Under the pieces are notes generated by a model, which was not told the DNA's origin, searched no databases, and was given only the letters and a program-made list of their open reading frames with translations. Both the position numbers and the translations under genes were made by a program. Positions 3,792 to 58,800 of a DNA stretch of 64,000 bases are shown piece after piece (position 1 is the first letter of the stretch; every line of letters begins with the position of its first letter). Source of the stretch: a virus. Its lineage: Duplodnaviria > Caudoviricetes. The DNA lies in the IMG/VR virus record IMGVR_UViG_3300037471_000178, positions 1,212 through 65,211 of that record; one strand, written 5' to 3'.

Positions 3792-4457
3792 CTATCCTCC
3801 ACAAAATTCACACAGCTTCTTGCCTACCGGACACCACTCCCGGCACAGGCCACTTGGTTTCGGCGGAAAATCGCCACTTTTCGCCGCGTGTTCGATGCGC
3901 TGGACACGGGTGGTGAACTCTTGCCAGATCGCGGGTACATCGTCCGGCGTAAATTCATCGTTATCGACTCGTTCGTGGCCGAGCCACACGAATCCTGTTT
4001 TGACTTTCTCAAGCTGCGGCATCTGCATGAACGCGGTCGCTGCAAACAACTTCAACTGGTCGCTGTCCGGCTTGGGTTTCCCGGTCTTCCAGTCCAGAAT
4101 GATCGCCGTTTTCGGCTGCACGATGGCAACGTCCCAGACTGCCCGCAGCCATACATCACGCGCAAAAAAAGTGGTGGGCTTGAAGTCTCGGGTCATGCCG
4201 ATCTTCTGCTCCACCATCTTCTTTCCCGGCGTCATCGCCACCCGCTTCACGATGGGCGCATAGTCCATGTACTTCGTGGGCAAGGCTTGCTGGCCCGACA
4301 CAGCCAGCTCCAGCGCCTTGTGTACCTCGTTTCCATGGAGCGTCGCTTTCGTCTGCGGCTCCTGCACAGCCTTACTTACTTTTGTCAGGTAGTATCTACG
4401 CGGACACGTTTCAAACGCGGTCAGTGCAGAGTAACTCCAAGTAATCGGTTTATTCAT
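3792..4457 (-). CDS. PD-(D/E)XK (Cas4/RecB-like) exonuclease
   Basis: WSYSAL..FETCPRRY, GNEVH, DVA...ILDWKTGK, QL..FA, C..CP..C; start reassigned to MNKPITW. Confidence 0.85.
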   Translation of the reverse strand: MNKPITWSYSALTAFETCPRRYYLTKVSKAVQEPQTKATLHGNEVHKALELAVSGQQALPTKYMDYAPIVKRVAMTPGKKMVEQKIGMTRDFKPTTFFARDVWLRAVWDVAIVQPKTAIILDWKTGKPKPDSDQLKLFAATAFMQMPQLEKVKTGFVWLGHERVDNDEFTPDDVPAIWQEFTTRVQRIEHAAKSGDFPPKPSGLCREWCPVGKKLCEFCGG

Positions 4458-4646
4458 TGTTGTCCCGCGTGTCCCACGCCACCAAACATTTGAGCAAAAT
4501 ATAGCACAGCCTGTCAGCAAAACCACTACAAAGTATGTCAGACGTTTCACACCGCAAGATTAACTTAAAGTGATCTTGCGCGGATTTGCATTTTATGCTG
4601 TGCCGCCATCGTGTTACGCGGGAGACAGTGTAACGTAAAAAACTTC

Positions 4647-4676
4647 TTGCGCTTCCATTTTTACTTGGGCTACCAT
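4647..4676 (+). promoter_or_regulatory. Possible sigma70 promoter TTGCGC-N18-TACCAT
   Basis: Near-consensus hexamers with an A-tract upstream, facing a plus-strand terminator about 100 nt away. Confidence 0.4.
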
Positions 4677-4682
4677 AGAAGC

Positions 4683-4779
4683 GTTCTCGCGGCTAGACTC
4701 GTTCCCTAGCCAGTCCGTCAGGACAACCCTTGTGTTGAAAGCTCCTCAAGGCCCGCCCCTCCAAGCGGGCCTCTTTTTT
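4683..4779 (+). ncRNA. Candidate ~100 nt small RNA
   Basis: Promoter-like element, internal hairpin GGCTAG/CTAGCC and intrinsic terminator; no ORF. Confidence 0.3.
4749..4779 (+). terminator. Intrinsic terminator
   Basis: AGGCCCGC-ccctccaa-GCGGGCCT followed by CTTTTTT. Confidence 0.75.
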
Positions 4780-5371
4780 ATGCGCGGCGCATCCGGGCAA
4801 GGATCACCGCACCGATGGATAGCGTCATCAACGCTCCCGGCTCCGGCAGTTCGGTCGGATCACCGGCCCGGATAACCGGGCTAATCGCAGTCCAGCTATC
4901 GGATTTGAACGTCAGGTTGTCCATCCCCATCGTATTCAGTTCTAGCCCGTTGATCTGTCCGTTGCCATACATAGTGAAGTAGTGGTCGGACGGCAGGTTG
5001 TACCACTTGAACCCGGCGTCATCTATCCACACCGCGTCCATGCGGTAGTCGTTTGCCAGCGCGTAAGAAAACGCGCCCCACCGGAACGCTTGCACGTAGC
5101 CCTGAAAGCTGATCTGCGACAGATCGGCATGCGTATCAAACGATACCCGCGATGCCCCCTCCAAGAATGCGCCGTTGTCGCCGTACCGAACTCGCCCGCC
5201 GTTGAAATAGATGCCGTAGTTCGGGCCACTATTGCCGCAGCTATCGGTGCCACCTGCGTAATACCCTTGCACCAGCCCATAGTCGCACACACCATCGAAG
5301 GTCAGTACCGGCCCTGCCAGCGCCGATGCAGTCATGATTGATGCTGCGAGTCCCATCAGTTTGCCTTTCAT
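4778..5371 (-). CDS. PEP-CTERM sorting-signal protein
   Basis: Signal peptide MKGKLMGLAASIMTASALA; C-terminus ELPEPGALMTLSIGAVILARMRRA = PEP motif + TM helix + basic tail. Confidence 0.88.
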   Translation of the reverse strand: MKGKLMGLAASIMTASALAGPVLTFDGVCDYGLVQGYYAGGTDSCGNSGPNYGIYFNGGRVRYGDNGAFLEGASRVSFDTHADLSQISFQGYVQAFRWGAFSYALANDYRMDAVWIDDAGFKWYNLPSDHYFTMYGNGQINGLELNTMGMDNLTFKSDSWTAISPVIRAGDPTELPEPGALMTLSIGAVILARMRRA

Positions 5372-5382
5372 TTTCAGCTCCA

Positions 5383-5410
5383 GAAAAAGAAAGCCCGTCC
5401 TAAGACGGGC
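5383..5410 (-). terminator. Intrinsic terminator
   Basis: GCCCGTC-ttag-GACGGGC then TTTCTTTTT on minus strand. Confidence 0.75.
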
Positions 5411-5433
5411 ATTAATGGCTCCCTTGTCACGGC

Positions 5434-6081
5434 TTAATGTGCGTGGAGTTGCCGCCGTTTGGCCTTTTCCTCCATTGCGTCAAGTTCCCGGTCGATGGTT
5501 AGGCGGAACGCTTCAACCACTTCCCGCGCTTCCTTCCGGGTTAGCCTCCCATCTGGCTTGGTCGCCTGTGCCGCCTCTAGTGCCGCCAGCCGACGTTGCG
5601 CCCACTGTGACCACATCTTGCTGGTAAAGTCCAAGCGGGCCTGACCAGTCAGTTGTGCATGCGGCGGGCGCAGCATGTTTTCAATCTTCACCAAACGACG
5701 CAGACGCTCACGCATCGCTGCCACGTATCCGCGATTCGCTTCAGCAGCAATCTCTCGCTGCTCCTCCTGCCAGATGGCTCGCTCAATATCAGTCTCGCCG
5801 TTAAGCAGAGCCTTGAGCGATGTGTATGGCAGGTTGCGATTTGCCCGCTTGCGCATAATCAGACGAACCACGGCACGAAATGCGGTGGAATCATTTGATG
5901 CCAATTCCAGCAATGGGTTATACACGGAGAGTTCCCCTGCAAATCTTACAGAGTCTCCCGGAATTTCCAGTACGCTTTTCAGACGTTTCACCATGTCATC
6001 AATATCGCGTCGCTGGACCAGTTCTCCCACTGGCTGAATTAGTTGATTAGCGGAAGCTTTCGTTTCGTTAATAGTGTGCAT
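5434..6081 (-). CDS. Hypothetical helical protein
   Basis: 215 aa ORF followed by a terminator. Confidence 0.6.
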   Translation of the reverse strand: MHTINETKASANQLIQPVGELVQRRDIDDMVKRLKSVLEIPGDSVRFAGELSVYNPLLELASNDSTAFRAVVRLIMRKRANRNLPYTSLKALLNGETDIERAIWQEEQREIAAEANRGYVAAMRERLRRLVKIENMLRPPHAQLTGQARLDFTSKMWSQWAQRRLAALEAAQATKPDGRLTRKEAREVVEAFRLTIDRELDAMEEKAKRRQLHAH

Positions 6082-6163
6082 GTGTTGCCCCGTTCTATTA
6101 AATTTTATCCTTATTGGTTGCAGTGTAAGCGCTAATTACTGTTCAGCGCTATCGGAGGTTGTC

Positions 6164-8077
6164 CTACTTTGCTTCTCCATAGCGATCTGCCACGTCCCCT
6201 TCTGACCATGTAACCAAATCAGGCCACCATACCGGAGGCGTCCTGAAGATACACTGCAAGTATTCGAGTTTTTCTACCGCAGTTTGTTCCTTCTCAATGA
6301 ATACAATTTCGTCATAAACCCGCAAACAAGACGTAATTCCCGTTTCTATATAGAAACGCGCATCGGCTTCCACCATTACATCACGCGCCAAAGCTTGCAC
6401 AATATTCTCGACCATTTTCCCGCCGTAAATATATGCCTTGTGCCTGCCGTGGGCATAAACCCATTGCTGCTTTCCGTCGTTCTTATTCACTTCCATTCGC
6501 AAATCGGGGTAACGAATTATCCTTCCTGAAGGCAATACAATTCCCTCTTTGCAGGTATGCGTTAATCCCCACGGATCAATCGCAATTTCCTTTCCTTCTT
6601 TAATGGCCCGCAGCATATCCTGACACCGATACCATCCGTTCTGAATCTCGGGATGCTCGCGCCGCCATTCAACCACCGCATGCTGTGCCTGTTCATCCGT
6701 GAGCACCACGTTGCCCATCGTCTTCGCAACGCCACGGAAGGTCTTGCCGCCAGCACCGAATCCCAGACCGAGCGCTTTGACTTTCTCAAGTTGTCTCTGA
6801 TCTTTTGATACTTCATCCGGCGCACAGCCATACAACTTCACCGCTGCCATGCGATACAGGTCCGCGTCTGCCTTCTCCTGCCACATGCGCGTCGAGTACG
6901 GGACTTTCCACAGGAAGTGATTCACCCGCAACTCGATGCCGGACAAGTCAGCCACGCACACCTTGTAACCCTTCGGCGCACACAGCGACATGCGCAGCGC
7001 ATCGCTAGGCCGGGGAATCTGGCCAATCCTCGGCAGGTTCAGCATGTTGTACTGCTCGCCGCTATCCCTGCCCGTGGTGTCCGCGCCGCAGTACCGGATC
7101 GGCACCGGCAGCTTCCCGCCACAGGCTCGCCCTGCCCGGATGAACTTCTGGATGCGCGTTTCTAGCAGGGTGGACTTCACCCCGAGCCGTGCGCCAGCCA
7201 GCGTTGCCACCGTCAGATCGTCGCTCTCCAGCAGGGCCAGCATGCCTTCGTCGTTCTTGGCTAGCGCCGGGATCATCACGCCTTCCTTCTTCGGGCTTGG
7301 CTTCAGCGGTACTTCACAGCCAATCGCCTCCAGCATGGCGGCGAACTTCGGTGCCGACGCAATATCGCCCTTCAGCACTTCCAGCATCGCTTCCTCGGAG
7401 TCGTCCTGCCACTCCCGGCCAAGCATGTCAGCCACATTCAGCAGGGCACGGCGCTTCATTTCCTGCACTTCTTCCAGCGTCGATTCCAGCATGCCGAAGT
7501 CCAGCACGAACTGCGGGTTCACCAGCTTTTCTACCAGCAGATGAATCTGCAGCATTTCCCGCGCCCCGATGCGCTTGCTGAAATTCTTGAACAACGCATA
7601 GCACTGGTCGGTGTCCATCGCGTTGTACACAGCCATCGCATCCAGTTCTTCCTGCGTGAAGTCGCACAGGTGCTTGCCCTTCGTATTCAGCAGGATCGTG
7701 TTGTCCTTCTCGCCTAACCCGTACTCCTTCACCAGTGCGGCCAGCGACACGCCACAGGTCTTGGCATGGTAGGGCCGCGCCATCGCCGCCGTACATGCCC
7801 ACATGCGGGGCTGGATGCCGAATCGCCAGCGCACGATCATGCTGTCGAAGCCGCTCATGTTGTGCCCGACACAGATGGCTTGCGTCCAATCAATGTCGTT
7901 CAGTGCCATGCGTACATTTGCTTCGCCGAAGTACACATTCGTCTGGCCATCGTTGATCTTGATGGCGCACGAAATGATTTCGGTGTCCGGGTGCATCACG
8001 TATTCGGTCGGCGGCATCTTGGTCAGCGAGTGCGTCACCGACCAATAGCTTTCAAAATCCAATGTGACAATGTTCAT
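6164..8077 (-). CDS. DNA polymerase family A with 3'-5' exonuclease domain
   Basis: TLDFES (ExoI), VGHNMSGFD (ExoII), DLSGIELRV (motif A), RQLEKVKALGLGFG (motif B), VYDE (motif C); start reassigned to MNIVTLDFES. Confidence 0.92.
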   Translation of the reverse strand: MNIVTLDFESYWSVTHSLTKMPPTEYVMHPDTEIISCAIKINDGQTNVYFGEANVRMALNDIDWTQAICVGHNMSGFDSMIVRWRFGIQPRMWACTAAMARPYHAKTCGVSLAALVKEYGLGEKDNTILLNTKGKHLCDFTQEELDAMAVYNAMDTDQCYALFKNFSKRIGAREMLQIHLLVEKLVNPQFVLDFGMLESTLEEVQEMKRRALLNVADMLGREWQDDSEEAMLEVLKGDIASAPKFAAMLEAIGCEVPLKPSPKKEGVMIPALAKNDEGMLALLESDDLTVATLAGARLGVKSTLLETRIQKFIRAGRACGGKLPVPIRYCGADTTGRDSGEQYNMLNLPRIGQIPRPSDALRMSLCAPKGYKVCVADLSGIELRVNHFLWKVPYSTRMWQEKADADLYRMAAVKLYGCAPDEVSKDQRQLEKVKALGLGFGAGGKTFRGVAKTMGNVVLTDEQAQHAVVEWRREHPEIQNGWYRCQDMLRAIKEGKEIAIDPWGLTHTCKEGIVLPSGRIIRYPDLRMEVNKNDGKQQWVYAHGRHKAYIYGGKMVENIVQALARDVMVEADARFYIETGITSCLRVYDEIVFIEKEQTAVEKLEYLQCIFRTPPVWWPDLVTWSEGDVADRYGEAK

Positions 8078-8529
8078 AGGAACCGTTGGATGATCTGATT
8101 CACTTGCGATTGGGAAATGCGGAAGCCCTGCGCCAACTGGTGCTGCGTCCACTCCCGCGTCTTGTAATACTGCGCGATGGTACGCTTCTGCTCCTCGTTG
8201 TACGGCGGCTGCCAGCCATGATCCGGCAGTGGGGTTTTCTCTGCCTTGAGCGAACGCGAGTTCGGAACAACGACAAAGTGCGCCGGGTTGCAGCAGCTCT
8301 TGTTGCCGCACTTCTGCTTCACGAATCCACCGTCACGCCCCTTCATCACGGGGTCGCTGAGTAAGCCAGCGTAGTACGCGGCCAGCCGGTGGGCACGATA
8401 CGACACGCCTCCATAAATAAGCTGACCGTAGCCACGGTTCAGGAAACCCATGAAAGGCCAGCATGCGTCCGGGCCACCGCGCTTGTCAACGCGCCTCCAG
8501 AAGTACTTCTCTAGTCTGTTTGCAGTCAT
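8074..8529 (-). CDS. HNH (Cys-His box-like) endonuclease with C-terminal HTH
   Basis: CWPFMG..GYGQL..AHRLA..CGNKSCCNPAH; TQHQLAQGFRISQSQVNQI. Confidence 0.75.
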   Translation of the reverse strand: MTANRLEKYFWRRVDKRGGPDACWPFMGFLNRGYGQLIYGGVSYRAHRLAAYYAGLLSDPVMKGRDGGFVKQKCGNKSCCNPAHFVVVPNSRSLKAEKTPLPDHGWQPPYNEEQKRTIAQYYKTREWTQHQLAQGFRISQSQVNQIIQRFL

Positions 8530-30305: not shown

Positions 30306-31829
30306 ATGAGCAAATACATTATCCCGGCCTCCACCGTACCCGGTGAAGCGCCGTATGTGTTCGACGCTGCCACTGGCAAGTCGGTCGGCCTGCAAGGTAC
30401 AGGCAGCACTGGCGTCACCCCATTTTCCAAGCCGAGCCGGAACTTCACCGGCAGGCTGCCCTATGTTCTGTCCCCGGCTCCTACCCTGCTGCTATCGAAC
30501 GCAGACGAGGCGGCAATGTTCGCCACGGGTCCGTACTATTCCGTGCTGGATGCTAGCGCGTTCAAGCTGACGGGCTGTGTTCCGCAGCGGGCAATGTGGT
30601 ATCCAGACTACCAAGGACTCAACGGCAACATGATGTACTCGGTAACGGCTCCGTCACCGTGGGCAGTTGAATTCTGGCTGGATACGATTGACGCTACCGG
30701 GCGCTTTGAAATCGCCATGAAGGGCGCGGGCAACGGCTTCCGTGTCGGTATTCGCCAGCCGCGCGATGCAGCTTGGGGCTACGCTTCTACCGGCGCGACG
30801 TTCCGACCGACTGGTAACGGAGAAACCTTCCACGGCGTCGTGGCAATAGGCGCACCGGGTACGTATCAGGTTCGCATTGAAATGGAACAGTGGTCCGCGC
30901 TGTATGGCGTTGGTGGACCGGCTGGTACGCATATCACAGCCCTGCCCCGCGCACCGCGCACCTACATCGTTGTCGGTGACTCCTTTACCGAGCCAACCGT
31001 CGTTGACTCGATTGCGCATGTCGCCAACGATGGTTGGGTCAGCATGCTGGAGCACATCACGGGCTACAACTTCATTTCCGCTGGTCTTGGTGGTACGGGT
31101 TATCTCGGTACCAACAACGGAACGCGCCCGAAGTACCGCGACCGCCTGATGGAAGCTATGGCGTACGGCGCAGACGGCATTATCTTCACTGGTGGTGTCA
31201 ACGACATTGGCACGTTCAACGGTGCGCAGATCGGCCCGGAAGCGACGGCATGCTTCGAGTATGCACGGAATGTCTTGGGCAGCACGGCGGATATCGTCGT
31301 TGTTAGCCCGTTCTACCCGCGTCAGATTCACGATATCACTATCCCCAATCTGCTTGACGTGCGTGACGCGCTGCGTACCGCCTGCGCAAAAGTTGGCGGC
31401 ACGTTCCTTGACGTTCTCTCCCTGCCGACAGGTCCGTATTTTGCCAAGCCAGCCATGCAGCTTCTCGGTGCGCTCGGCCCCGGCAATACGTCTATTGATG
31501 TGGCTGTTGTGCCTCATGCTGCCGAAATTGGCGGGTTCTACCTGTGCATTGGTGAAGGTCCGTCAGCGGAAATTCGCAAAGTAACCGGCGTTATTAACAA
31601 CGGATCGAGCTACACCCTCAATCTGAATGCTGGTGTCACTTTGTCACACGCGGCTGGCGCTCCAGTCACCCTTGCAGGTCCGTCGTACATGACCGGCACG
31701 GGTAACGCTGGCGCACACGCTAATGACGGTATTGCGGACTACCACACGAGCGCGGACGGGATGCATCCGACAATTGCAGGGCATCGCAACATCGCCCGGA
31801 CAATTGCTACGCTTTGGGCAAATAGCTAG
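30306..31829 (+). CDS. SGNH/GDSL hydrolase (esterase) domain protein
   Basis: VGDSFT block I, GGTGY block II, GGVND block III, DGMHPT..GH block V. Confidence 0.85.
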   Translation: MSKYIIPASTVPGEAPYVFDAATGKSVGLQGTGSTGVTPFSKPSRNFTGRLPYVLSPAPTLLLSNADEAAMFATGPYYSVLDASAFKLTGCVPQRAMWYPDYQGLNGNMMYSVTAPSPWAVEFWLDTIDATGRFEIAMKGAGNGFRVGIRQPRDAAWGYASTGATFRPTGNGETFHGVVAIGAPGTYQVRIEMEQWSALYGVGGPAGTHITALPRAPRTYIVVGDSFTEPTVVDSIAHVANDGWVSMLEHITGYNFISAGLGGTGYLGTNNGTRPKYRDRLMEAMAYGADGIIFTGGVNDIGTFNGAQIGPEATACFEYARNVLGSTADIVVVSPFYPRQIHDITIPNLLDVRDALRTACAKVGGTFLDVLSLPTGPYFAKPAMQLLGALGPGNTSIDVAVVPHAAEIGGFYLCIGEGPSAEIRKVTGVINNGSSYTLNLNAGVTLSHAAGAPVTLAGPSYMTGTGNAGAHANDGIADYHTSADGMHPTIAGHRNIARTIATLWANS

Positions 31830-39292: not shown

Positions 39293-42200
39293 ATGACTAC
39301 CATTAACACCAGCAATGCTCTCGGTGCAAAGGTCAAGTTTCACTGGCCGCTGAACGGGACCGAAGGGGAAATCAAAACCGGAACCGCCCTCGTTATGGGG
39401 ACGGGCGGTTCCTTTGCGACTGACCCGACCTACGGCCCGTACCTGAAGGGCGACTTGGTTAATCCGGTTGCCCATCAGGACAACATCGACCTGACTGCGC
39501 AGACCGGGTTCACCATTGCATTCCGTGCGTATTGCACCGGCCCCACCGATAACTCCGATGGCTTCCTCTGGGAGCTTGGCGAGCCGTGGGACACGGTGCC
39601 CGGTGGTTGCGGCTTCGCCCTCCAAGCGGGCGGCGGCGACATGACGGTGGTGATCAACAGCAATCAGAGCGGCGGCACTTACAAGGCGTTCACCCGCGTC
39701 AACCTCGGCTGGCACTACTTCATCATCGACATTCGGAACGGTAACGGCGGTAGCTGGACAACCGTTCAGGTGGATGGGCAGACGCCGACCGTCACGTTCG
39801 ACCCGCAGGGTTTCAGCACCGGCAATCGCGGCAACAACACGATGTACTTCTTGGGTCGTAACACCACGAAGCTCGCCGCGAACCGCCTGCAGAAAGTCAC
39901 CATCTTCAACAGCGTTCTGTCGCAGGCTGAGAAGGATTCGCTGCTGGCGAACCCGGATCAGATCGTCAACGCTGCTGCGGACACGATCCCCCCGACGATT
40001 GCCTCGGCACAGACGAACGCGACTGGCGACGTGATCCAGATTACGTTCTCCGAAACGCTGGCGCACGTCACGCCGGACTCGTCTGCCTTCACCGTCAGCG
40101 GCGGTCACGCCATCGGCGGTATCGACATTGGCACGGACGGCCCGAACAAGGGCGCGATCTACGGTCTGTCCCCGGTGATTGCTCCGGGCGAAACCGTCAC
40201 CTTCAGCTACGTCCAGCCTGCGACCAATCAGATTCAGGACGCTGCCGCGAATATGATGGTGTCGGTGGCTAACGTCGCCGTTACCAACACCGTTCCAATT
40301 CCGGGCGACACCACCCCGCCAGCGATCCAGTCGGCGGTCCTGATGGTGGACCCGGCCAACAGCACCAAGCAGATCATTCGCCTGACGTTCACCGAAGCGA
40401 TGGACGCAGCGAAGTATCCGGAAGCGATTGGCGCTACGGCGGCATCGGCATGGTCGGTATCCGGCAACGCCGCTGTGTCCGTCACTGCCACGACCCGCAC
40501 TTCGCTCGGTGCCAATCCGGGTGTGCTGGACATTAACCTGAACGGCACGTTCGTATCGACCGACAATGTTCGCCTGACCTACACGCCGAACGCGAACGCT
40601 ACCGGCAAGTACAGCGACCTGTCCGGCAACCCGCTAGCTGCGGTATCGAACTTTGTCGTGACGAACTCGATCAGCGGTGCGCTGACCTACACCGCCGACA
40701 CCACCACGAACTTCCCGAACCCGGAGCGCGGCTTCTACATGGAGCTGCTCCACGGCGGTAACTTCACCGCAGCGAACTTCAACACCTACAAGGCGCAGGG
40801 TGTGTCGCTGGTGAAGTACATGGTGTACCTCGGCTCCTACGTCACGACGGCGCTGGACAGCACCTTCCTGACCGCGTTCCAGAACAACCTGAACGCTATC
40901 CGCACCAACGGCCTGAAGGTCGTGCTGCGGTTCGCCTTTTCCAGCACTGCGGCAACCGATGCGACTGAATCCCGCATCATGAGCCACATGGATCAACTGG
41001 CTCCGTACTTCACCAGCAACGCCGATATCATCATCGGCCTGCAAGCTGGCTGGATCGGCCAGTGGGGTGAGTTCCAAGGTTCCAACAACTTCGGCGCGGA
41101 CGCATGGCCGACTTCGCTCTCGCAGGCGAACAAGGATGCCCGTAAGCGCGTCATCGACAAGTGCTTGGCTGTCATGCCTGACAACAAGCCGGTCATGCTG
41201 CGCCAGCCGTGGTACAAGCTGCAGATGTACAGCTCCACCCCGGTCGGAGCCTCTAATGCATACGACGGCTCTGCCCTGTCCCGCCTCGGCCACTTCAACG
41301 ATTCGTTCCTGACCTCCAGCAACGACGGCGGTACGTACTACCAGCAGACCACCGAACAGACCTACATGGACACCGATACCCAATGGGTTCCGGTGGGCGG
41401 CGAAACCAACGGCGGCTCTGCCCCGCGCAACGCCGGTCCTTCGGCGCTGGCGGAAATGGCCCGCTTCCACTGGTCGTACCTCAACATCGGCTACGACACC
41501 ACCGTTCTGAATACGTGGAAGGACGGTCAGGACAGCTACGGTCAGGCACAGCGCAAGCTCGGCTACCGTCTGCGCCTCGTGTCGGCGCAACTGCCAAACG
41601 TGTTCACTCCCGGTGGCACGGTCGGCGTCAAGTTCGTCATCAACAACGACGGCTTTGCTGCCCCGTTCCTGCCCCGCAAGATCAAGCTGATCCTGCGTAG
41701 CGGCACCACGGTTCGCTCGATTGACATGACTTCCGACTGGCGCAAGTTCCTGCCGGGTCAGACCGTCATTCAGGAAACGCTGACTCTGCCTGCTGATCTG
41801 GCTCCGGGTACGTACAACGTCGCCCTGCACCTGCCGGACAACTACGCTTCGCTGGCAAACAACCCGACCTTCGCCGTTCGCTTTGCGAACACGAACATGT
41901 GGGAAGCCACCACCGGCTACAACCTGCTCGGCACTTCTGTCACCGTGCCGAACGCGCAGGCCAACGGCCACCGCTTCTACATGCTGCGGGTGCTGGCGAC
42001 CAACGGCAGCTTCAACAACCAAGTCGCTTTCGGTGAAATCGAGCTTCGCGCTACTCCGGGCGGTGCAGACCTGACGACTCCGACGACCAAGGTAACGGTC
42101 AGCTCGGCCAGCCCGCAGTACAACGAGATCGCAGCGAACATTCTGGACAATAACAATCAGTCCACGTATTCGTCTGACTCCAGCAAGCCCGCGCCGCACA

Positions 42201-44605
42201 CCATCATCTTCGACCTCGGCTCTCCCAAGGTTGTGCAGCAGCTCGCCATCCTGCCGCAGCAGTACACCGACACCAACATGGTTCTCGGTCGTACGATGCG
42301 CGACTTCGATTGGCTGTCTGCCGAGGATGACGGTACGGGCAATCCGGCTGGATTCGCGCTTCAACGCTCGTATCGGGGTAAGCCAGCTTCGGACTGGAAC
42401 CTTACACAACTGAACCTGCTGGACGTAACGCCGCAGGCCGCGACCAAGATCAGCATGACCGGCCCCGCTTCCGGTCCGCTCGGGGACTCCTCGTACGTGT
42501 TCACCATGACCATCGACGGCACGGTGCCGAACGATGTGGTGGTGACGCCGCCGACTATCTCCGGCCTGACCTTCGACCCGCCGAGCATCATCATCAGCAA
42601 GTCCACCGGCCAAGGGCAGTTCACCATTCACGGTGATTCGCTCGGCTCGTACACGCTGACTGGCTTCACCAACAACGCTGGTCTGACCAACCCGGCTTCG
42701 CAGTCGTTCTCGGTTGTTACTTCGGTGGTGAAGCACATCGGCGCTGGTCAGGAGTTCGCGGACCTCAACGCCTTCGCTGGCTGGCTGTGGAACCAAACCC
42801 CAGTCGATGGTCGTTACATGATCTTCGGCAAGCTTCATGATGCGTCCTTCTCCGGCGCAGGTGTCAGCCTCACGCTGCAGCAATCGTCGTCGCAGTATTA
42901 CTGCGAAATCGGTCCCGCCGATGGCATGTCGATTGCCTCGCCGCTGCGTTGGGGTTCCAACCCGGTGACGATCACCCTCGGCACTGCTGACTACCTCAAC
43001 CTCAACCTTGGTGTGCGGTTCGTCAACGTCCAGTTCGACATTACCGGCGCAGGTATCGCCACGTCGTCCGGTCTGGGCTGGGCCTATAACAACACCATGA
43101 AAGTGCCTGAACTGGCGCACTGCGTTATCCGGGCGAACACGGCCAACAACCCGCTACGTCTGGGCATCTATGCAGTGGCAACTGCCATGGACAACTGCCT
43201 GTTCATCCAGACCGGATCGAACGACCGCAGCATCGGCCAGATCGACGGCTGGCTGGACATGCGCAACTGCGGCTTCGTGCGCTACGGCACCTACGGTCAA
43301 CCGCTGTTCCTGAATACCGGCGCACTGGCGCTGACGAACTCGTGGGGCTGGAACGTCATGGCGGCTGGCAGGCTGTCGTCGGATACGGGCAACTGGCGCG
43401 AGTTCAAAGGCAACGTCTTCAACCAAGACGTTGTTACCGGCTCCGTCATGGACAACTCGCAGCCGCCAACCATCGGCTGCATCACGGCGAACAACTTCCT
43501 CGTTGATCCGTCCTCCGCGACCGGCGACTTCACTCCGGCCTCCGGTGGCGCACTGGTCGGCCATGCAACCCGTATCGCCAATGCCACGCTGGACTTCTTC
43601 GGCAACAACCACGGCCTCACGCCTGACGTTGGCCCGGTACAGCGCACTCCGGCTCCCACGCTGGCGGTGGCGCAGGTGACGACCCAAACGCTGGACGGTG
43701 CATCGTTGACTGTCGCTGGCTCGGTGACTGGCACGGTGGACTCGGCAACGATCACGATTGTTCCGACCGATACCCGCTACATCAACCACTCCATCGGCCC
43801 GCTGGCTGTTCCGGTTGTCGCTGGCGCGTTCACCATCACCATCGACAACATCGTGCCGGGTTCGTACGCCGCGCCTAGCCTGCTGTTCACCAACGGTGGC
43901 GGTACTTCCGCAGCCAAGGGAACCGCGCCTTTCGAGCTGATGGGCGTGTCCGGTACGGCGATGGACTCTGGCACGATCACGCCAGCTACCTCGGTTGTGT
44001 ACAGCACCACCGCGCCGACCACTGGCACGGCAGGCTCGTCCACAGCAGCGTTCAGCGTGAGCCTCGACGGTGCCAAGTCCGGCATCGTGACGCTGGCACT
44101 GAGCGATAACGGCAAGGGTGGCGTGTTCAGCCCGCAGGCTCCGACCATCGTGAATGGCGCACCCGCGAGCTTCACCTACACCCCGTCCGTGGCTGGCTCC
44201 ATCACCATCAGCATCACCAACGATGCCGGTCTGACCAACCCGGCTCCGGTTGTGATGACGATTGCTCCGGCTGTCCTGCCTGCTCCGACGGTGGCTGTCA
44301 CCACGGGCGACACGGCCATCATGCGCGGCGCTCGCGCCACGCTGTCCGGCACGACCAATCTGCAAGGCGATGCAACGGGTACGGTGAGCCTGTACATCGA
44401 GTCTCAGCTTGACAGCACGGTACAGGGTCCGCTCGGCACCGTGAACGTAAGCGGCGGCACTTGGACCGTCCAGTACCAACCCATCCCGGTTGGTATCTGG
44501 AAGTTCCGGGTTGACGCCACGGCCAACGGGCAGACCGCGCAAGCCCGCACCGGAATCATCCGGGTACTCGGTCTGACCGGCTCACCGGCTCTGCCGACAC
44601 CATGA
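39293..44605 (+). CDS. Giant multidomain adhesin/glycanase-like virion protein (1770 aa)
   Basis: LamG-like N-terminus, two SwmB-like DT.PP.I.SA repeats, DUF4874/DUF4832-like (NPERGF, RLGHFNDSFL, GGET, LGYRL), discoidin-like and Ig-like modules. Confidence 0.75.
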   Translation: MTTINTSNALGAKVKFHWPLNGTEGEIKTGTALVMGTGGSFATDPTYGPYLKGDLVNPVAHQDNIDLTAQTGFTIAFRAYCTGPTDNSDGFLWELGEPWDTVPGGCGFALQAGGGDMTVVINSNQSGGTYKAFTRVNLGWHYFIIDIRNGNGGSWTTVQVDGQTPTVTFDPQGFSTGNRGNNTMYFLGRNTTKLAANRLQKVTIFNSVLSQAEKDSLLANPDQIVNAAADTIPPTIASAQTNATGDVIQITFSETLAHVTPDSSAFTVSGGHAIGGIDIGTDGPNKGAIYGLSPVIAPGETVTFSYVQPATNQIQDAAANMMVSVANVAVTNTVPIPGDTTPPAIQSAVLMVDPANSTKQIIRLTFTEAMDAAKYPEAIGATAASAWSVSGNAAVSVTATTRTSLGANPGVLDINLNGTFVSTDNVRLTYTPNANATGKYSDLSGNPLAAVSNFVVTNSISGALTYTADTTTNFPNPERGFYMELLHGGNFTAANFNTYKAQGVSLVKYMVYLGSYVTTALDSTFLTAFQNNLNAIRTNGLKVVLRFAFSSTAATDATESRIMSHMDQLAPYFTSNADIIIGLQAGWIGQWGEFQGSNNFGADAWPTSLSQANKDARKRVIDKCLAVMPDNKPVMLRQPWYKLQMYSSTPVGASNAYDGSALSRLGHFNDSFLTSSNDGGTYYQQTTEQTYMDTDTQWVPVGGETNGGSAPRNAGPSALAEMARFHWSYLNIGYDTTVLNTWKDGQDSYGQAQRKLGYRLRLVSAQLPNVFTPGGTVGVKFVINNDGFAAPFLPRKIKLILRSGTTVRSIDMTSDWRKFLPGQTVIQETLTLPADLAPGTYNVALHLPDNYASLANNPTFAVRFANTNMWEATTGYNLLGTSVTVPNAQANGHRFYMLRVLATNGSFNNQVAFGEIELRATPGGADLTTPTTKVTVSSASPQYNEIAANILDNNNQSTYSSDSSKPAPHTIIFDLGSPKVVQQLAILPQQYTDTNMVLGRTMRDFDWLSAEDDGTGNPAGFALQRSYRGKPASDWNLTQLNLLDVTPQAATKISMTGPASGPLGDSSYVFTMTIDGTVPNDVVVTPPTISGLTFDPPSIIISKSTGQGQFTIHGDSLGSYTLTGFTNNAGLTNPASQSFSVVTSVVKHIGAGQEFADLNAFAGWLWNQTPVDGRYMIFGKLHDASFSGAGVSLTLQQSSSQYYCEIGPADGMSIASPLRWGSNPVTITLGTADYLNLNLGVRFVNVQFDITGAGIATSSGLGWAYNNTMKVPELAHCVIRANTANNPLRLGIYAVATAMDNCLFIQTGSNDRSIGQIDGWLDMRNCGFVRYGTYGQPLFLNTGALALTNSWGWNVMAAGRLSSDTGNWREFKGNVFNQDVVTGSVMDNSQPPTIGCITANNFLVDPSSATGDFTPASGGALVGHATRIANATLDFFGNNHGLTPDVGPVQRTPAPTLAVAQVTTQTLDGASLTVAGSVTGTVDSATITIVPTDTRYINHSIGPLAVPVVAGAFTITIDNIVPGSYAAPSLLFTNGGGTSAAKGTAPFELMGVSGTAMDSGTITPATSVVYSTTAPTTGTAGSSTAAFSVSLDGAKSGIVTLALSDNGKGGVFSPQAPTIVNGAPASFTYTPSVAGSITISITNDAGLTNPAPVVMTIAPAVLPAPTVAVTTGDTAIMRGARATLSGTTNLQGDATGTVSLYIESQLDSTVQGPLGTVNVSGGTWTVQYQPIPVGIWKFRVDATANGQTAQARTGIIRVLGLTGSPALPTP

Positions 44606-52817: not shown

Positions 52818-55800
52818 ATGGCATCCATCACCGATATCATCAACGGCTACTTCGACAACCGGCCTGACCCGGCTGCGGCCCCCGCGCCCATGCCGGGTAA
52901 CACCGGCAATGCGGCGACCGACCTGATGGATCGCCTCGTCGGTGCGATCCGCAATGTCGAATCGGGCGGCAACCCGAACGCGGTCAGCCCGCAGGGTGCG
53001 TCCGGTTCCATGCAGATCATGCCGGGTACGTTCCGTCAGTACGCCATGCCCGGTGAGTCGTATTACAACGACGAGCACCGCACGGCTGCCGCGATCCGCA
53101 AGATCAAGGACGACTGGAACTACTTCAACGGCGACCCGATGAAAGTCGCCGCTGCCTATATCGGTGGGCGCGGCGCGGTCCTGCCTGACGGCACGATCAA
53201 GGATTCGGTGCGTGACGCGCACGGCACTAGCCCCGCTATGTATGCCCGCATGGTCGCTGGCCGCATGCAGTACGACCCATCGCAGGGTGCAGCCGGTCAG
53301 CTCCCTTCCAGCGAGCCGATGCCTGCCGACTACTCCGACATTGCTAACTCGGTACTGAACGCTGGCGCGAAAGCCATCGGCGGCTTGCCGCCCCCACCCC
53401 CGCCGAAGACCGGCCTGATGCGTCGCTTGGGCGACACCGGCATCGACTTGGCGAAGGGTGCTGTGGACGCTGGCTCCGCTGTGACTGGCTTGGCGCGGCT
53501 TATCCCCGGCGTCGGCACGGTGCTGGATGCGGCAGGCTACGATCCGGAAGCGACCAACCAAATCTTCTCCCGTGGCTACTCCCCGGCACGTACCGCTGCC
53601 GAACAGGAAGTCGCTCAGGCTGGATTCCAGCGCGAAGGCACCGGCTTCTGGAATGAGGCTGGCGGTGCGATTGGCGATCTGCTTCAGCATCCGTCCGTGG
53701 CATTCGGTCGCGGCGTCGAAGCCCTGCCCTCGATGATGCTCGGCGCGACCGGCGCTCGCGCTGCCGCCATGCGCGGCGTTACCAACGTCGGTGCGCTCAA
53801 GACGCTCGGCGCTATCGGTGAAGGCGCTGTCTCCGCTGGTCAGACCGCGACCCAGATTGCGCAGTCCAACCCGGACGGTAACGTGTACGCGGCTATCCCC
53901 GCTGGCGTTCTCACCGGCCTGATCAGCCGTGGCGCTGCCGCCATCCCAGGATTCGGTGACGCCAAGACTGCCGTGATGACTGGCGTGGGCGCTGCTGGCG
54001 CAACGGGCGGCCTGCTGCGGCGTGTCGGCAAGGGCATGATCTCCGAAGGCATCCTTCAGGAAGCCCCGCAGTCCGCGCAGGAACAGATGTGGCAGAACAT
54101 CGGCACTGGCGACCCGCTCATGAAGGGCGTCGGCGCTCAGGCTGGTCAAGGCTTGGCGCTCGGCGTCATGCTCGGCGGCATGGAAGGTGCGATGCACAAG
54201 AACCACGGCATGCCGAATCAGACTGGCGGCGAGGCGCAGGAACAAGCCGCTCCGGTGCTGGCGCAGGACTCCACCGGCCAGATGAACCTGCTGTCGCCAA
54301 ACGACATGCCTGCACAGCCCACGCAGGTGATGCGTCCGGCTGACGCTGTGGCTGGCCCGCTGCCCGAAGGTGTTCGCACCCCGGCGCAGATGGACCTGTT
54401 CGGTGCGCCGCAGATGATGAGCAACCCGGCGCAGATGGAACTCCCGTTTGACGAGCGCCGTGCTGCCGCGCCGCAGGCACCTGCCACTTCTGCGCAACTG
54501 GAACTGCCGCTCAATCCTCCGGCCCGCGATATCATGGCACCGGAGCATGCGGCTGACCAACTGGCGCAGGCCAAAGAACAAGGCGCGATTGAACGCCTCG
54601 ACCAAGCTCAGGGAAATGTTGTAACGCCGCAGCTAGCACAGCAGCAGGATCAGATCGCCGGTACGCTGCACGAAGCGTCGAACCAGCCGCAGGTACAGAC
54701 CCCACAGATCGAGATTCCCGGTCAGGTCCAGCCGGGTGCTGGCGGTGTCGTCGCGTCGGAAAAGCCGAAGACCATCTACGAGATGCAGATGGAAGCCCGC
54801 CGCAAGGCGTCCGCTGGCGAACTCCTTAGTCAACAGGAAGCCGTGTTGCTGACCCTGCCGGTTGAGCCGCCGCATCCGAACGCCAAGATCGAAGTTCCCC
54901 AAGCGCCGAACACCAAGCCAGCCGAGCCACAGCAGGGCGAAATGTTTGGCAAGGTGCTAGACCAGCAGCCGGGACAAATCCCCACCAACCAAGGAAATGT
55001 CCCCGTCGAAGGCAAGCAGCCCGGTCAGGCAGAAATGTTCGACCAGCGCGGCAACCCGACCTACGCTGCCGAACAGACCGCAGACCCGAAAGCCATCGCG
55101 GAACAGTTCGGCAAAGAGTTCCGCATCAAGGTCACTGACCGGCGCATGCCGATCATGGCGCAGATCGGTCGCGCCCTGAACGACAACAAGATCAGCTTTG
55201 ACGATGCCACCCACCTTGCCGAAGCCGTCCGTGCTGGCAAGCTGAAATTCGCTGAGACTTCGCTAGCGTCGTCACTGGCAGAAAATGTCCCGCAGGCCAA
55301 GCCGGGGACAAATGCAGTCATGACCGAGGGACAAAATCCCGAGGCTCCGGCAGAGGCTCCGCAGTCCATCATGGGCACACCGCTGGAGGATGCTCACGCC
55401 AAGAACTACGAAGTCACCAACGGCTCGATTCAGGACGCGAACATTCACGAACTGTACGCGGCTGCCGAGGAAGGCGACCACCCGACGTTCTCCGTCAACG
55501 ACGCCGAGAAGGAACTGGCACGACGCTACTCCGATCAGTCCGGTAACATTCCGGAGCAAGATCAGAGAGTTGCCGAGCGGTACTTCAATATGAACTTCCC
55601 CGAGGCGCGGGCGCGTGAAGCGTACCTGCGTCAGCTTGCGCATGAGCGCGAGGGTGCGAAGGGCATGGCGTCGTGGCGTGAAGGCGAGAAGGGAGAGGGA
55701 GTGAGCGCCAGCGCAGCCAAAGCCGTCGCCGACGCAATGACGAACAAGTGGAAGAACGCGCCGCAAGTCGAAGTGGTAGAGAGCCGCGATGACTTCCCGC

Positions 55801-58800
55801 CCGAGCTTCGCAAGGAAGCCGAGGATGCCAACGTCAACCCGAAGGCGGGCTACTGGCGCGGCAAGGTGTACGTCATCGCCAGCAACCATTCCTCGCTTGG
55901 CGACGTGGCAGCTTCCATCCTGCACGAGATCACCGGCCATCACGGACTGGACGCGCTGCTTGGCGACTCCAAGAAAACCGTGATGAATCAGATTTACAAC
56001 GGCAACCCCGAAATCCGCAAGGCCGCTGACGCGATGATGGCGCAGGAAGGTCTGGACAAGGAAACCGCCGTGGAGGAAGTGCTGGCAGACATGGCCGAGA
56101 AGGGCCGCGTCAAGCCGAGCGTTCTGGAGAAGATTGGCAACGTCATCCGTGCCGGTCTGCGCAAGATCGGTCTGGGCAGCATCGCCTCCGGCGTGACCAA
56201 CGGCGAAGTGAAAGAGATTCTGGCGAACGCTCGCAAGGCAGTCGAACAGGGTACGGAAGCTGCACCGTCCGACAAGGCGGTGTACCGGCAGGAAGCCAAG
56301 CCATCGCTGGACGACATTCCGGAACCGAAGGCTGGCACGTTCCTCGACCGGATGAAGGACACCTTCGGAGGTCTTGGCACCAAGCCAGCCGTGCTTGGCT
56401 TCATGACTCTGCGCCAACTGGTTGACCGCTTCGGCGGTTCCGTCCCGGCGCTGAAGCGGCTTGCCGACGCACAGATCAAAATGTCCTCGATGGCCAAGCA
56501 CCTGCAAGGCGAAATCGAAGGCATCGACCGTGGATTCGAGAAGCTGTCGGACAAGGAATCGCTGGACCTGTCCAAGCTGATGATCGACGCGACGATGGCA
56601 CGGATGCACCCGGACATGGCGTTTGACGCCGACGAGAACAGCCATCTGGATCGTGCGCTGCGCGACGATCATCAGGCGCTTGCGGACCGTTATAACAACA
56701 TGCCCAAGCACATGAAGGAGCTGTACCAGCAGACCAAGGCCAAGTTTGAGTCTGACTGGAAAAAGACCAACGACCTGATCCGCTCAGCCATCATCGACCA
56801 GTATCGTGCCGAAATGACCGAGCGCGGCATGGACGCCGACAAGATTTCGGAAATCAAAAAGACCGAAGACCGCGTGGCGTTCAAGAAAACGCTGAAGACT
56901 ATCTCGGATCGTCGGCTGGCGTCGCACCTGTGGGATGACATGGATCAGCATGCATACCAGCTCTCGCAGATGCAGGGTCCGTACTTCCCGCTGATGCGCT
57001 TCGGCCAGCATGCGGTGGTTGCCAAGTCCCTCGGCCTGCGCAACGCGCAGGAAAGTCTGGACCGGGCGCGTGAGGCTCTGGCTGACCTGTACCGTCAGGA
57101 CGATGACACCTACGACAAGAAGGAACTGGCTGACCGTCGCAAGGCTGTCACCGATGCGCAAGCCGCGCTCAATGCGTACAAGCGCGACAGCAAGCAGTAC
57201 CTTGTCGAGTTCTACGAGAGCCAAGCGGAAGCCGACGCTCGCGTGAAGCAGATCAAGGAACACTTCGGCGACGACCCGAGCATGCAGGTGGAGCGCAAGC
57301 TGCGTGAGGCGCACTTCCGCGAACTGGACTCGGCACCGTATGGCTTCATGAAGAAGCTTGAGGAAGAAATCGCTGCCAACCTGCCGACCAAGGATTCGTC
57401 CGCGATCAAGCAGGCCGTGCGCGATCTGTACATTCGCCAGATGCCGGAACAGGCTGCACTCAAGCAGCAGCTCAAGCGCCTGAACGTGGCGGGTGTGAAG
57501 GCTGGCGAAATGCGCCGCGCTGTTATCAGCGCCGGTCTGCGGAACTCGTTCAACATTTCCCGCATGTCGTACGGCAGCGAGTACAACGCGGCGCTGGATG
57601 AACTGCGCCACGGCGATACCGACGAAGCCAAGCTACTCGGTGAGGAAATGGCGAAGCGCACGATGCAGCTTATGGCTCCGTCCTCGCAGAACAGCATCAT
57701 CAACGGGCTGTCGAACATCAGCTACGTGGTGAACCTCGGTCTGTCGCCATCGTTCCTCGCGCTGAACCTGTTGCAGCCGTGGACCGTATCGGCCCCGATC
57801 ATGGCGGCGCGTCACGGCCTGCTCCCGTCCGGCAATGCGCTGATGCGGGCAACCGGCGAAGTGGCAAAGGCGATGGCAAAGTCGTACAAGCAGGACGGTC
57901 TGAAGTTTGAACTGGACCTGAATCTGTTCAAGGACGATGAGCAGCGCATGCTCAAGGAACTGCTGGATCGCGGCGTTATCGACGTGACGCAGGACTACGA
58001 TCTTCGCGCTGCTGCCGCTGGTCAGACCGAAGGCATCACCGACAAGATGGCGAAGATTTCTTCGCTCCCGGCGCACCACACGGAAATCGTCAACCGGGTA
58101 GCCACCGCGCTAGCCGCGTACCGCCTTGAGAAATTATTGGATGCCAAAAACGGCACTAATTTCGCCACGCAGTATGCGGAGAAGGTTGTGGCCGACACCC
58201 ACCTTGACTACACCGCAGAGAATGCGCCGCGCCTGATGCAAGGCTCCAACGCTGGCGGTCTGGGTAAGCTGTTCTGGCAGTTCAAGAAGTACCAGCAGGG
58301 CATGATTTACCTGAACTTCAAGCTCATCAAGGATGCGATTGCGGAAGGTACGCTGACCGGCGAATCGGCCAAGGGCGCGATGTACCTGACGGGTGCGAAC
58401 CTTGCCATCGCTGGTGCGGTCGGAACCCCGCTGACGGCCCTAGCCTCGCTAGCCATGACCATCGCTGGCGCGTTCGGTCCGGATGACAAGGACAAGGAAT
58501 ACAAGCAGCAGTTCTACGCGGGCCTGAAGGATTCGCTTGGCGAGACTGCGGCGCGGCTGATCATGAAGGGCGCACCCGCTGCCTTCCTCAACATCGACGT
58601 ATCGGATCGTGCCGGTATGGGCGATATCCTGAACCCGCTGAAGTTTGCGCGTCAGGGCAACCATGGACAGGATACCGTCGCCAACTCGCTGTTCGCGCTG
58701 GCTGGCCCGACCGCTTCGCTGGCTGCGAACTGGTACGACGGTATCGACGCGCTAATGCACGGCAAGCCGATGGATGCTGCCCGCGTCGTGGCTCCGCGCT

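Follow-up and report, generated by a model that had tools for sequence, protein, structure and literature searches.

A PEP-CTERM-type secreted protein as acquired cargo in the replication gene block of an apparently virulent tailed phage

The DNA considered here (the window) comprises 64,000 bases of the IMG/VR record IMGVR_UViG_3300037471_000178, a phage genome of 65,211 bp with direct terminal repeats (DTR) that is rated 100% complete. On the minus strand of the window, among the genes for DNA replication, lies an open reading frame (ORF) of 197 codons, whose product has the layout of a PEP-CTERM protein, that is, a signal peptide, a globular domain, and a C-terminal tail that resembles the sorting signals processed by bacterial exosortases. 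The sorting of PEP-CTERM proteins by exosortases is widespread in environmental and floc-forming bacteria, and the substrates are treated as chromosomal genes under the control of sigma-54. The biochemistry of the exosortases has been largely inferred, including the nature of the molecule to which the protein is transferred. The gene and the parts of its product are arranged as follows:

4778–5371, minus strand: gene of the PEP-CTERM-type secreted protein, 197 amino acids, with the stop codon at 4778–4780 (ORF)
5378–5381, minus strand: ribosome-binding site GGAG, 6 nt 5' of the ATG at 5371 (read from the sequence)
5315–5371, minus strand: signal peptide, residues 1–19, composed of MKGK, a hydrophobic core, and the cleavage site ALA/G (sequence, hydropathy, and alignment of homologues)
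4892–5314, minus strand: beta-sandwich domain, about residues 20–160 (AlphaFold2 model and alignment motifs)
4838–4846, minus strand: PEP motif Pro176-Glu177-Pro178, which follows a disordered linker at residues 167–177 (alignment and AlphaFold2)
4781–4837, minus strand: C-terminal membrane helix (residues 179–192) and the basic end RMRRA (residues 193–197) (hydropathy and AlphaFold2)

A word-indexed protein search with the 197-residue protein recovered only the protein itself, and the relatives emerged from an exhaustive phmmer search of 1.84 billion representative sequences, which found 68 at E ≤ 1e-3, most of them 200–230 residues long. Several of these alignments extend to residue 194–196 of the query, and the closest relative, P0002, is 40–41% identical (E 3e-30). 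The family alignment used below contains 24 sequences, the query and 23 of the 68 relatives.

The ORF at 4778–5371 is a real gene. Its G+C content at third codon positions (GC3) is 0.71, which resembles that of the adjacent phage genes. The preliminary description had proposed a Sec-type signal peptide, and this reading is borne out by inspection, given that the MKGK start, the hydrophobic stretch, and the ALA/G site align with the signal peptides of the 23 homologues; the AlphaFold2 model has a helix at residues 3–17 of this region. The cleavage site (ALA/GP) has no lipobox cysteine. An alternative start at an internal ATG (codon 13, within a copy of the repeated 11-mer TCATGACTGCA) was rejected, as it would delete the signal peptide that the homologues keep. 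Two cysteines, Cys29 and Cys45, are common to P0002 and P0006, which fits an oxidizing, extracytoplasmic location. At the other end of the protein, the LPEP sequence occupies residues 175–178, followed by a Kyte–Doolittle hydropathy peak of 2.4 at residues 181–191 and a predicted helix at residues 178–196. Across the family alignment, P176, P178, and G187 are invariant, R195 is nearly so, and E177 is found in at least 90% of the sequences.

The identity of the tail is the point on which the interpretation of the gene depends, and the evidence for it comes from the family. All 23 aligned relatives share the signal peptide and the motif F-E-G-x(6)-V-x-D-Y-Y-N-G-G-T-D-S-x-G-N-x-G-x-N-Y-G, which is followed by a later L-D-N-I-x-F, and most of their tails are of the textbook form VPEP-x-x-L-A-L-L-G-L-G-A-x-G-L-L-x-x-R-R-R. 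The curated hidden Markov models (HMMs) of the PEP-CTERM signal, TIGR02595 and PF07589, match 20 and 21, respectively, of the 24 aligned sequences, with the query counted (E ≤ 0.01), and five of six relatives scanned singly exceed the 16-bit cut-off of TIGR02595, including copies on two phage contigs (L001 and L003). A search of the ESM Atlas likewise pointed to PEP-CTERM clusters. An HMM of the family built without the query and P0002 aligns residues 4–196 of the query with 137.7 bits and with high posterior probability through the tail, and an HMM of the tails of the 22 other members gives the query 23.6 bits, a score reached by none of 2000 shuffled sequences (maximum 15.0). The tail block RAG-P-ELPEPG-L--L-IGAV-LAR is also the longest near-continuous run of identity between the query and P0002. 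When the tail HMM was run against the six-frame translation of the window, this protein was the only ORF matched, and no second PEP-CTERM-like protein was found among all the six-frame ORFs with either the family or the tail HMM.

The scores of the protein itself weigh against its recognition as a sorting substrate. The PF07589 model gives it 8.8 bits (E 2.4), under the cut-off of 20.7; NF038129 gives 16.6 bits against a cut-off of 65, with the match restricted to residues 126–196; and TIGR02595 does not report it even at E ≤ 10. The nearest relative, P0002, likewise fails the PEP-CTERM cut-off, and its tail has lost the arginine cluster. Within the family, the query tail is the lowest-scoring by the tail HMM, with T, S, and M in place of the L, G, and L of the other members. 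The PEP-CTERM identity asserted in the preliminary description thus holds through a homology that runs into the tail, but a hit to the curated models, which had been suggested as a check, is formally lacking for this sequence alone. The protein is assigned to the family because its homologues pass the curated models, which its own scores do not. By these comparisons, the tail is a diverged homologue of genuine PEP-CTERM signals that has remained under constraint; its competence as an exosortase substrate is not certain. Among phage resources, the PHROGs collection has no family for the protein, and a tblastn search of 50,697 GenBank phage records with the protein and the family member P0007 returned no match.

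A scan of the species genomes of GTDB recovered family members in several groups of proteobacteria, with carriers in Massilia, Rubrivivax, Mitsuaria, and the Rhodocyclaceae, in Alteromonas, Aestuariibacter, Marinobacter, and Colwellia, and in Sphingomonas and the Rhodanobacteraceae. Exosortase (PF09721) scores above its cut-off in all five of the carrier genomes tested, against one of the 14 controls. As the preliminary description had stated, the phage encodes no exosortase, and none is found in the complete 65,211-bp DTR genome. A sigma-54 site upstream of the gene is a signature of proteobacterial PEP-CTERM genes (Haft et al. 2006, PMC1569441), and the element GGCA[CT]-N5-[TA]TGC[TA] was found 28–92 nt upstream of 21 of the 50 family genes of other loci, with a background of 0.008 per 210 nt in the same loci. 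On the minus strand near the 197-codon gene, there is no match to the −24/−12 site, and no convincing sigma-54 promoter was found anywhere in the window, where matches with two mismatches fall below chance.

In the family genes of bacterial genomes (L005–L053), the sorting tails are lineage-specific—classical VPEP in Massilia and the Rhodocyclaceae, PEP-x-x-W-A in the sphingomonads, and P-A-P-A-(G) ending in KKR in the Alteromonadaceae—and are joined to the same globular domain. This variation fits a co-adaptation of the tail to the local sorting enzyme. One metagenome contig (Ga0265325_10000790, locus L053) carries at least five family or PEP-CTERM paralogues within about 13 kb.

The weakness of the tail raises the possibility, here considered unlikely, that the tag is degenerate, and that the protein would be exported with a tail that is no longer an exosortase substrate, but a plain anchor that keeps a lectin-like domain in the periplasm. 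Such a domain could act on precursors of the exopolysaccharide or the envelope, or stop the DNA of a second phage from crossing the inner membrane. The tail is, as seen above, the weakest of the family and under all the curated cut-offs, P0002 fails in the same way without its arginine cluster, the sigma-54 link to the PEP-CTERM regulon of the host is gone, and a signal peptide and a C-terminal helix would suffice for an anchored periplasmic protein. The P-E-P motif, G187, and the terminal arginines have nevertheless been kept in the query despite divergence to 40% identity with P0002, which points to selection on the motif and not merely on hydrophobicity, and a disordered linker lies directly before the PEP, as in sorted substrates.

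The gene is located in an insert with its own arrangement of transcription signals:

4551–6163, minus strand: the whole 1.6-kb insert, from the DNA polymerase gene (6164–8311) to the exonuclease gene (3792–4550), delimited by comparison with relatives
6102–6129, minus strand: sigma-70-like promoter CTTACA-16-TAAAAT upstream of g215 (promoter scan; 9/12 matches, by consensus only)
5434–6081, minus strand: g215, the first gene of the insert, encoding a helical protein of 215 amino acids (ORF)
5383–5410, minus strand: intrinsic terminator TTTCTTTTTC, with a 7-bp stem (6 GC pairs) and a 4-nt loop, between g215 and the PEP-CTERM gene (scan and fold)
4749–4772, no strand assigned: GC-rich hairpin directly 3' of the stop codon, with a T-run on the plus strand (terminator scan)
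4590–4617, minus strand: sigma-70-like promoter GTAACA-16-TAAAAT before the exonuclease gene (promoter scan)

Fourteen IMG/VR contigs encode a polymerase 51–60% identical to that of the window phage, and 12 of them extend far enough to show the junction between the polymerase and exonuclease genes. The gap is about 100 bp in 11 of the 12, where it contains a sigma-70 promoter (TTGACA/TATATT), and 1.6 kb in the window phage. Comparative evidence thus identifies the 197-codon gene as acquired cargo, because in 11 of the 12 relatives the exonuclease gene directly follows that of the polymerase. The twelfth, L065, carries a different insert at the same junction (L065:6290–8125), which encodes an HNH endonuclease and a GNAT acetyltransferase along with small ORFs, and on account of this unrelated insert the junction is regarded as a hot spot for cargo. 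Five related phage records, two of which are at least 95% complete, lack the PEP-CTERM family.

The preliminary description had placed the gene alone between two terminators, in the manner of a moron. It is not alone, being the second gene of a two-gene insert, after g215. The upstream minus-strand terminator is real, and ends 11 nt before the ATG, with its stem at 5410→5393, its T-run at 5392→5383, and its hairpin in the minimum-free-energy fold, but the downstream hairpin at 4749–4772 has, on the strand of the gene, an 11-bp stem without a U-tract. The comparison to a moron is therefore apt in that the gene has been inserted between genes that are adjacent in the relatives, but it has neither a promoter nor a terminator of its own. 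The scan found no promoter-like site between the terminator (5410–5383) and the ATG, the nearest lying upstream of g215, which is the likely source of the transcripts that reach the PEP-CTERM gene. The claim that expression requires read-through stands, with the terminator at 5410→5383 confirmed directly upstream of the gene. The promoter at 4617→4590 may serve the exonuclease gene by restarting transcription beyond the insert. The hairpin behind the gene (4749–4779, with the T-run on the plus strand) lies within a block of solely minus-strand genes and has no Rfam match; antisense transcripts would be halted there before they enter the PEP-CTERM gene, or an unannotated plus-strand RNA arising in 4551–4748 would end there.

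The companion gene, g215, has no PHROG and no Pfam match. Its seven metagenomic homologues (P0077–P0083), 48–69% identical, lie on contigs of up to 46 kb, and it is absent from the polymerase–exonuclease junction of the related phages. Neither P0002 nor the g215 family was found in IMG/VR, and a scan of metagenomes for the context of P0002 gave only distant matches.

Family members were found on four IMG/VR contigs, two of which were verified as phages. One of these (L003) encodes terminase, portal, and head proteins, Rha, and DnaC, with the family gene between the packaging and regulatory modules, and the other (L001) is temperate, with an integrase, a CI-like repressor, and a primase-helicase; both are unrelated to the window phage. 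The other two, L002 and L004, could not be verified as phages: the neighbors of the gene in L002 have no PHROG matches, and its copy keeps a sigma-54 site. On L002, which may not be viral, two PEP-CTERM genes are adjacent (L002:9965–11553). When 98 members were placed in a maximum-likelihood tree, the viral copies fell at scattered positions, well-supported branches forced a minimum of three changes, and the window protein grouped loosely with metagenomic proteins only (Shimodaira–Hasegawa-like approximate likelihood ratio test, SH-aLRT, 83), with no close cellular donor. The tree thus indicates that the family has been captured repeatedly by phages, independently in at least two phages other than that of the window. 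The L001 copy has a GC-rich terminator-like hairpin upstream on the same strand (L001:9970–10013), with 23 nt between the end of the stem and the ATG and a T-rich tail of 9 nt behind the stem, in an arrangement like that of the window; a hairpin of this type is found in only two of the 50 family genes.

These results bear on the idea that the gene is passenger DNA, picked up recently together with g215 by illegitimate recombination at the hot spot, barely expressed, and without a selected function. Its position directly behind a terminator that looks efficient, the lack of a promoter of its own, its absence from all the related phages examined, and the unrelated cargo of L065 at the same junction are what would be expected of a passenger. 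The idea is nonetheless judged improbable, given the intact frame of 197 codons, the good ribosome-binding site, the GC3 of 0.71, which is like that of the neighbors, and the fact that at least two other phages captured members of this family independently. The lack of a close cellular donor, with the best relative at 40% identity, also argues that the acquisition was not recent.

A function in lysis or in the virion, as a unimolecular spanin (u-spanin) or a structural protein, for example, appears very improbable. The u-spanins of the T1 gp11 type have an N-terminal outer-membrane signal and a C-terminal inner-membrane helix, and the N-terminal signal and C-terminal helix of the phage protein resemble this topology superficially. 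The lipobox cysteine is missing at ALA/GP, however, which led to the rejection of a u-spanin identity, and the gene is found in the early replication block and not in a lysis cassette, on the strand opposite the structural genes. Its homologues, moreover, are chromosomal, sigma-54-driven bacterial PEP-CTERM genes, and it has no match in PHROGs.

The globular part of the protein was modeled by AlphaFold2 from the 24-sequence alignment, with a mean predicted local distance difference test (pLDDT) score of 83, rising to about 95 over most of the core. The model shows a beta-sandwich at residues 20–160 and a disordered linker at residues 167–177 (pLDDT < 50), and the sandwich carries the family motifs YY-x-GGTDS-x-G-x-x-G-x-NYG and DN-x-x-F, together with the Cys29/Cys45 pair. 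Foldseek gave weak matches in the PDB (E 3e-3 to 1e-2). In an exhaustive VIA-align comparison, the best match was the carbohydrate-binding domain of a pectate lyase (8wc1/8x8h; Z 10.0, root-mean-square deviation (rmsd) 3.0 over 120 residues), a Z only modestly above the noise level of 7–8, and a shared fold does not amount to sugar binding. Further matches at Z 8–9.6 include an arabinanase, CBM35, and porphyran-, alginate-, and xylan-binding modules, and most of the best-scoring rows, with the top hits at Z 10.0–9.0 among them, are carbohydrate-binding modules (CBMs). The model thus supports a CBM-like beta-sandwich fold.

The remainder of the genome agrees with the assignment of the record to a phage in the preliminary description. 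The plus strand encodes the terminase, the portal, the major head protein, and the internal virion and tail-fibre proteins, and the minus strand a family-A DNA polymerase, a helicase, an exonuclease, and an endonuclease. Neither a tyrosine integrase nor a serine recombinase (resolvase) was found in the phage, and no phage RNA polymerase was found among its proteins; for these reasons, the phage is apparently a virulent podovirus that depends on the RNA polymerase of the host. The closest cultured phages are distant podoviruses, Rhizobium RHph_TM3_14A (portal identity 38%) and Pseudomonas KPP25, phiR18, and Rollin (polymerase identity 29–31%), and a transfer of the host from the nearest isolates (RHph_TM3_14A, KPP25, and Rollin) was rejected, as the identities are too low.

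Some of the tail proteins have sugar-active-looking domains, as had been noted previously. A 507-residue protein (30306–31829, plus strand) contains a GDSL/SGNH esterase domain (37.4 bits, above the cut-off), and a 1770-residue protein (39293–44605, plus strand) contains DUF4874 (114 bits) and DUF4832 (187 bits), along with weak SWM-repeat and sub-threshold discoidin matches. These domains are consistent with a host that bears a decorated polysaccharide surface.

On this basis, it is considered moderately probable that the protein encoded by the cargo gene leaves the cytoplasm through Sec, is anchored by its tail, and reaches the cell surface or the exopolysaccharide layer through the exosortase of the host. 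Sec would export the 197-residue protein with removal of the signal peptide, and the C-terminal helix would hold it in the inner membrane, with the CBM-like beta-sandwich facing outward. The host exosortase would then recognize the LPEP–helix–Arg tail, as it would those of the bacterial homologues, and cleave it, and the cleaved protein would pass to the surface or the exopolysaccharide layer. Expression would be early and at a low level, by read-through of the terminator at 5410–5383, from transcripts initiated upstream of g215 at the promoter there, or continuing out of the polymerase operon, and the sigma-54 control typical of the cellular homologues has been lost in the phage copy.

The role of a protein sorted in this way is most likely the binding of a surface glycan of the host during infection, which could mask the receptor against superinfection, keep the progeny off the debris, or alter the aggregation of the cells. 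By analogy with Llp of phage T5, an early product of a lytic phage that masks the receptor of the phage itself, receptor masking or superinfection exclusion is plausible. A more specific version, in which the virulent phage, early in infection, plants an exopolysaccharide-binding lectin on the surface or matrix of the infected cell through the exosortase of the host, and thereby masks the glycan receptor targeted by its own esterase- and glycosidase-like tail proteins, is doubtful; if true, superinfecting phages would be excluded and fewer progeny would be lost on debris.

Sorting by the host exosortase, with glycan binding as the role, has to be set against the low scores of the tail and the modest structural Z already described, and against two further points. 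Expression may be very low, with a strong terminator 11 nt upstream of the gene and no promoter of its own found. The family and tail HMMs also detected no sequence similarity between the protein and the tail proteins of the phage, and for this reason there is no direct link to its receptor.

A number of other observations concern the window at large. The 11-mer TCATGACTGCA occurs in nine exact copies, all in one orientation on the minus strand (5327–5337, 8521, 10612, 16068, 17583, 18997, 20267, 21259, and 55313), and with one mismatch allowed there are 10 matches, against 1.27 expected. Five of the copies provide a gene with its initial ATG (M-T-A...), another is located inside the PEP-CTERM ORF, where its ATG is codon 13, and the others are intergenic or in the gene of a 2141-residue protein. 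The TCATGA of this context is palindromic, and the repeat may be a shared start context, a recombination site, or a homing site. The 2141-residue protein (52818–59243, plus strand) has an N-terminal transglycosylase or lytic-tail-protein match at residues 32–128 and, in its C-terminal half, matches to DarB-like antirestriction PHROGs; by these matches, it is probably an ejected internal virion protein. The phage has no tRNA genes, the Rfam gathering scan of the entire window gave no match, and a megablast search with 20 kb of the window found no match.

The systems closest to the phage protein are the bacterial substrates of PEP-CTERM/exosortase sorting (EpsH, XrtA; PMC1569441), which have the same signal peptide, variable globular domain, PEP motif, helix, and basic end. 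The protein is also homologous, from end to end, to proteins that pass TIGR02595 or PF07589. Bacterial members of the family have a sigma-54 site upstream and an exosortase in the genome, whereas the phage has neither, and its copy differs further in its position behind a terminator in an early operon and in a tail under the cut-offs. None of the named PEP-CTERM subfamilies includes the globular domain; the matches to NF038129, floc_PepA, and other models cover only the C-terminal third or less.

PepA of Zoogloea resiniphila is a PEP-CTERM protein associated with flocculation (NF033554; Gao et al. 2018, as cited in PMC12642866, ref. 37). It is likewise small and secreted, with a link to exopolysaccharide and to the aggregation of cells. 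The NF033554 model is touched by 19 of the 24 aligned sequences, but these matches are far under the 80-bit cut-off and restricted to the C-terminal region, so that orthology is not implied, and the query is unmatched.

Among phages, the morons and early surface modifiers include bor and lom of lambda, the receptor-blocking lipoprotein Llp of T5, Cor, and SieA of P22. The cargo gene resembles these in being an extra gene between genes that are adjacent in relatives, whose product is predicted to reach the envelope by an export route of the host. It differs in the predicted sorting by exosortase, in place of the lipoprotein or plain Sec routes, and in the lack of a promoter of its own.

A PEP-CTERM domain has also been mentioned, in a single sentence, for the protein HOG10 of the virus-like IME1 elements of Dehalococcoides (bioRxiv 10.64898/2026.09.15.751708). 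HOG10 differs in being a conserved gene of the virion module, in an integrative element that resembles filamentous or budding viruses, in a host of another phylum, and no sorting analysis is reported there. It is the only PEP-CTERM domain on a virus-like mobile element that the full-text literature search recovered, and the search, judged mostly by titles and abstracts, found no study of a PEP-CTERM protein or an exosortase route in a tailed phage.

The beta-sandwich is comparable to those of CBMs (8wc1/8x8h, CBM35 2w46, 8xmz, and 8zqf), with Z of 10.0–8.4 and rmsd of 2.7–4.3 over alignments of 111–125 residues that cover residues 15–162 of the model. Sequence identity with these modules is 6–13%, the likeness being one of predicted fold alone, and unlike them, the phage protein stands by itself and is not attached to an enzyme.

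What is new, as far as these comparisons indicate, is a PEP-CTERM family with a CBM-like domain that has no name as yet, the repeated acquisition of its members by phages, and a copy that lies in the early operon of a lytic-type phage and has been uncoupled from sigma-54. If the proposed sorting is true, a phage-borne substrate would show that phages tap the exosortase pathway to alter the surface of the host, and no earlier functional example of PEP-CTERM/exosortase sorting being exploited by a phage would precede it, which would provide a handle on how the enzyme treats its substrates. Small, single-domain proteins like this one of 197 residues would be convenient reporters of exosortase cleavage and of the fate of the cargo, and in biofilms of sludge, soil, and the sea their glycan specificity could account for shifts in aggregation that are driven by phages, or for resistance to phages.

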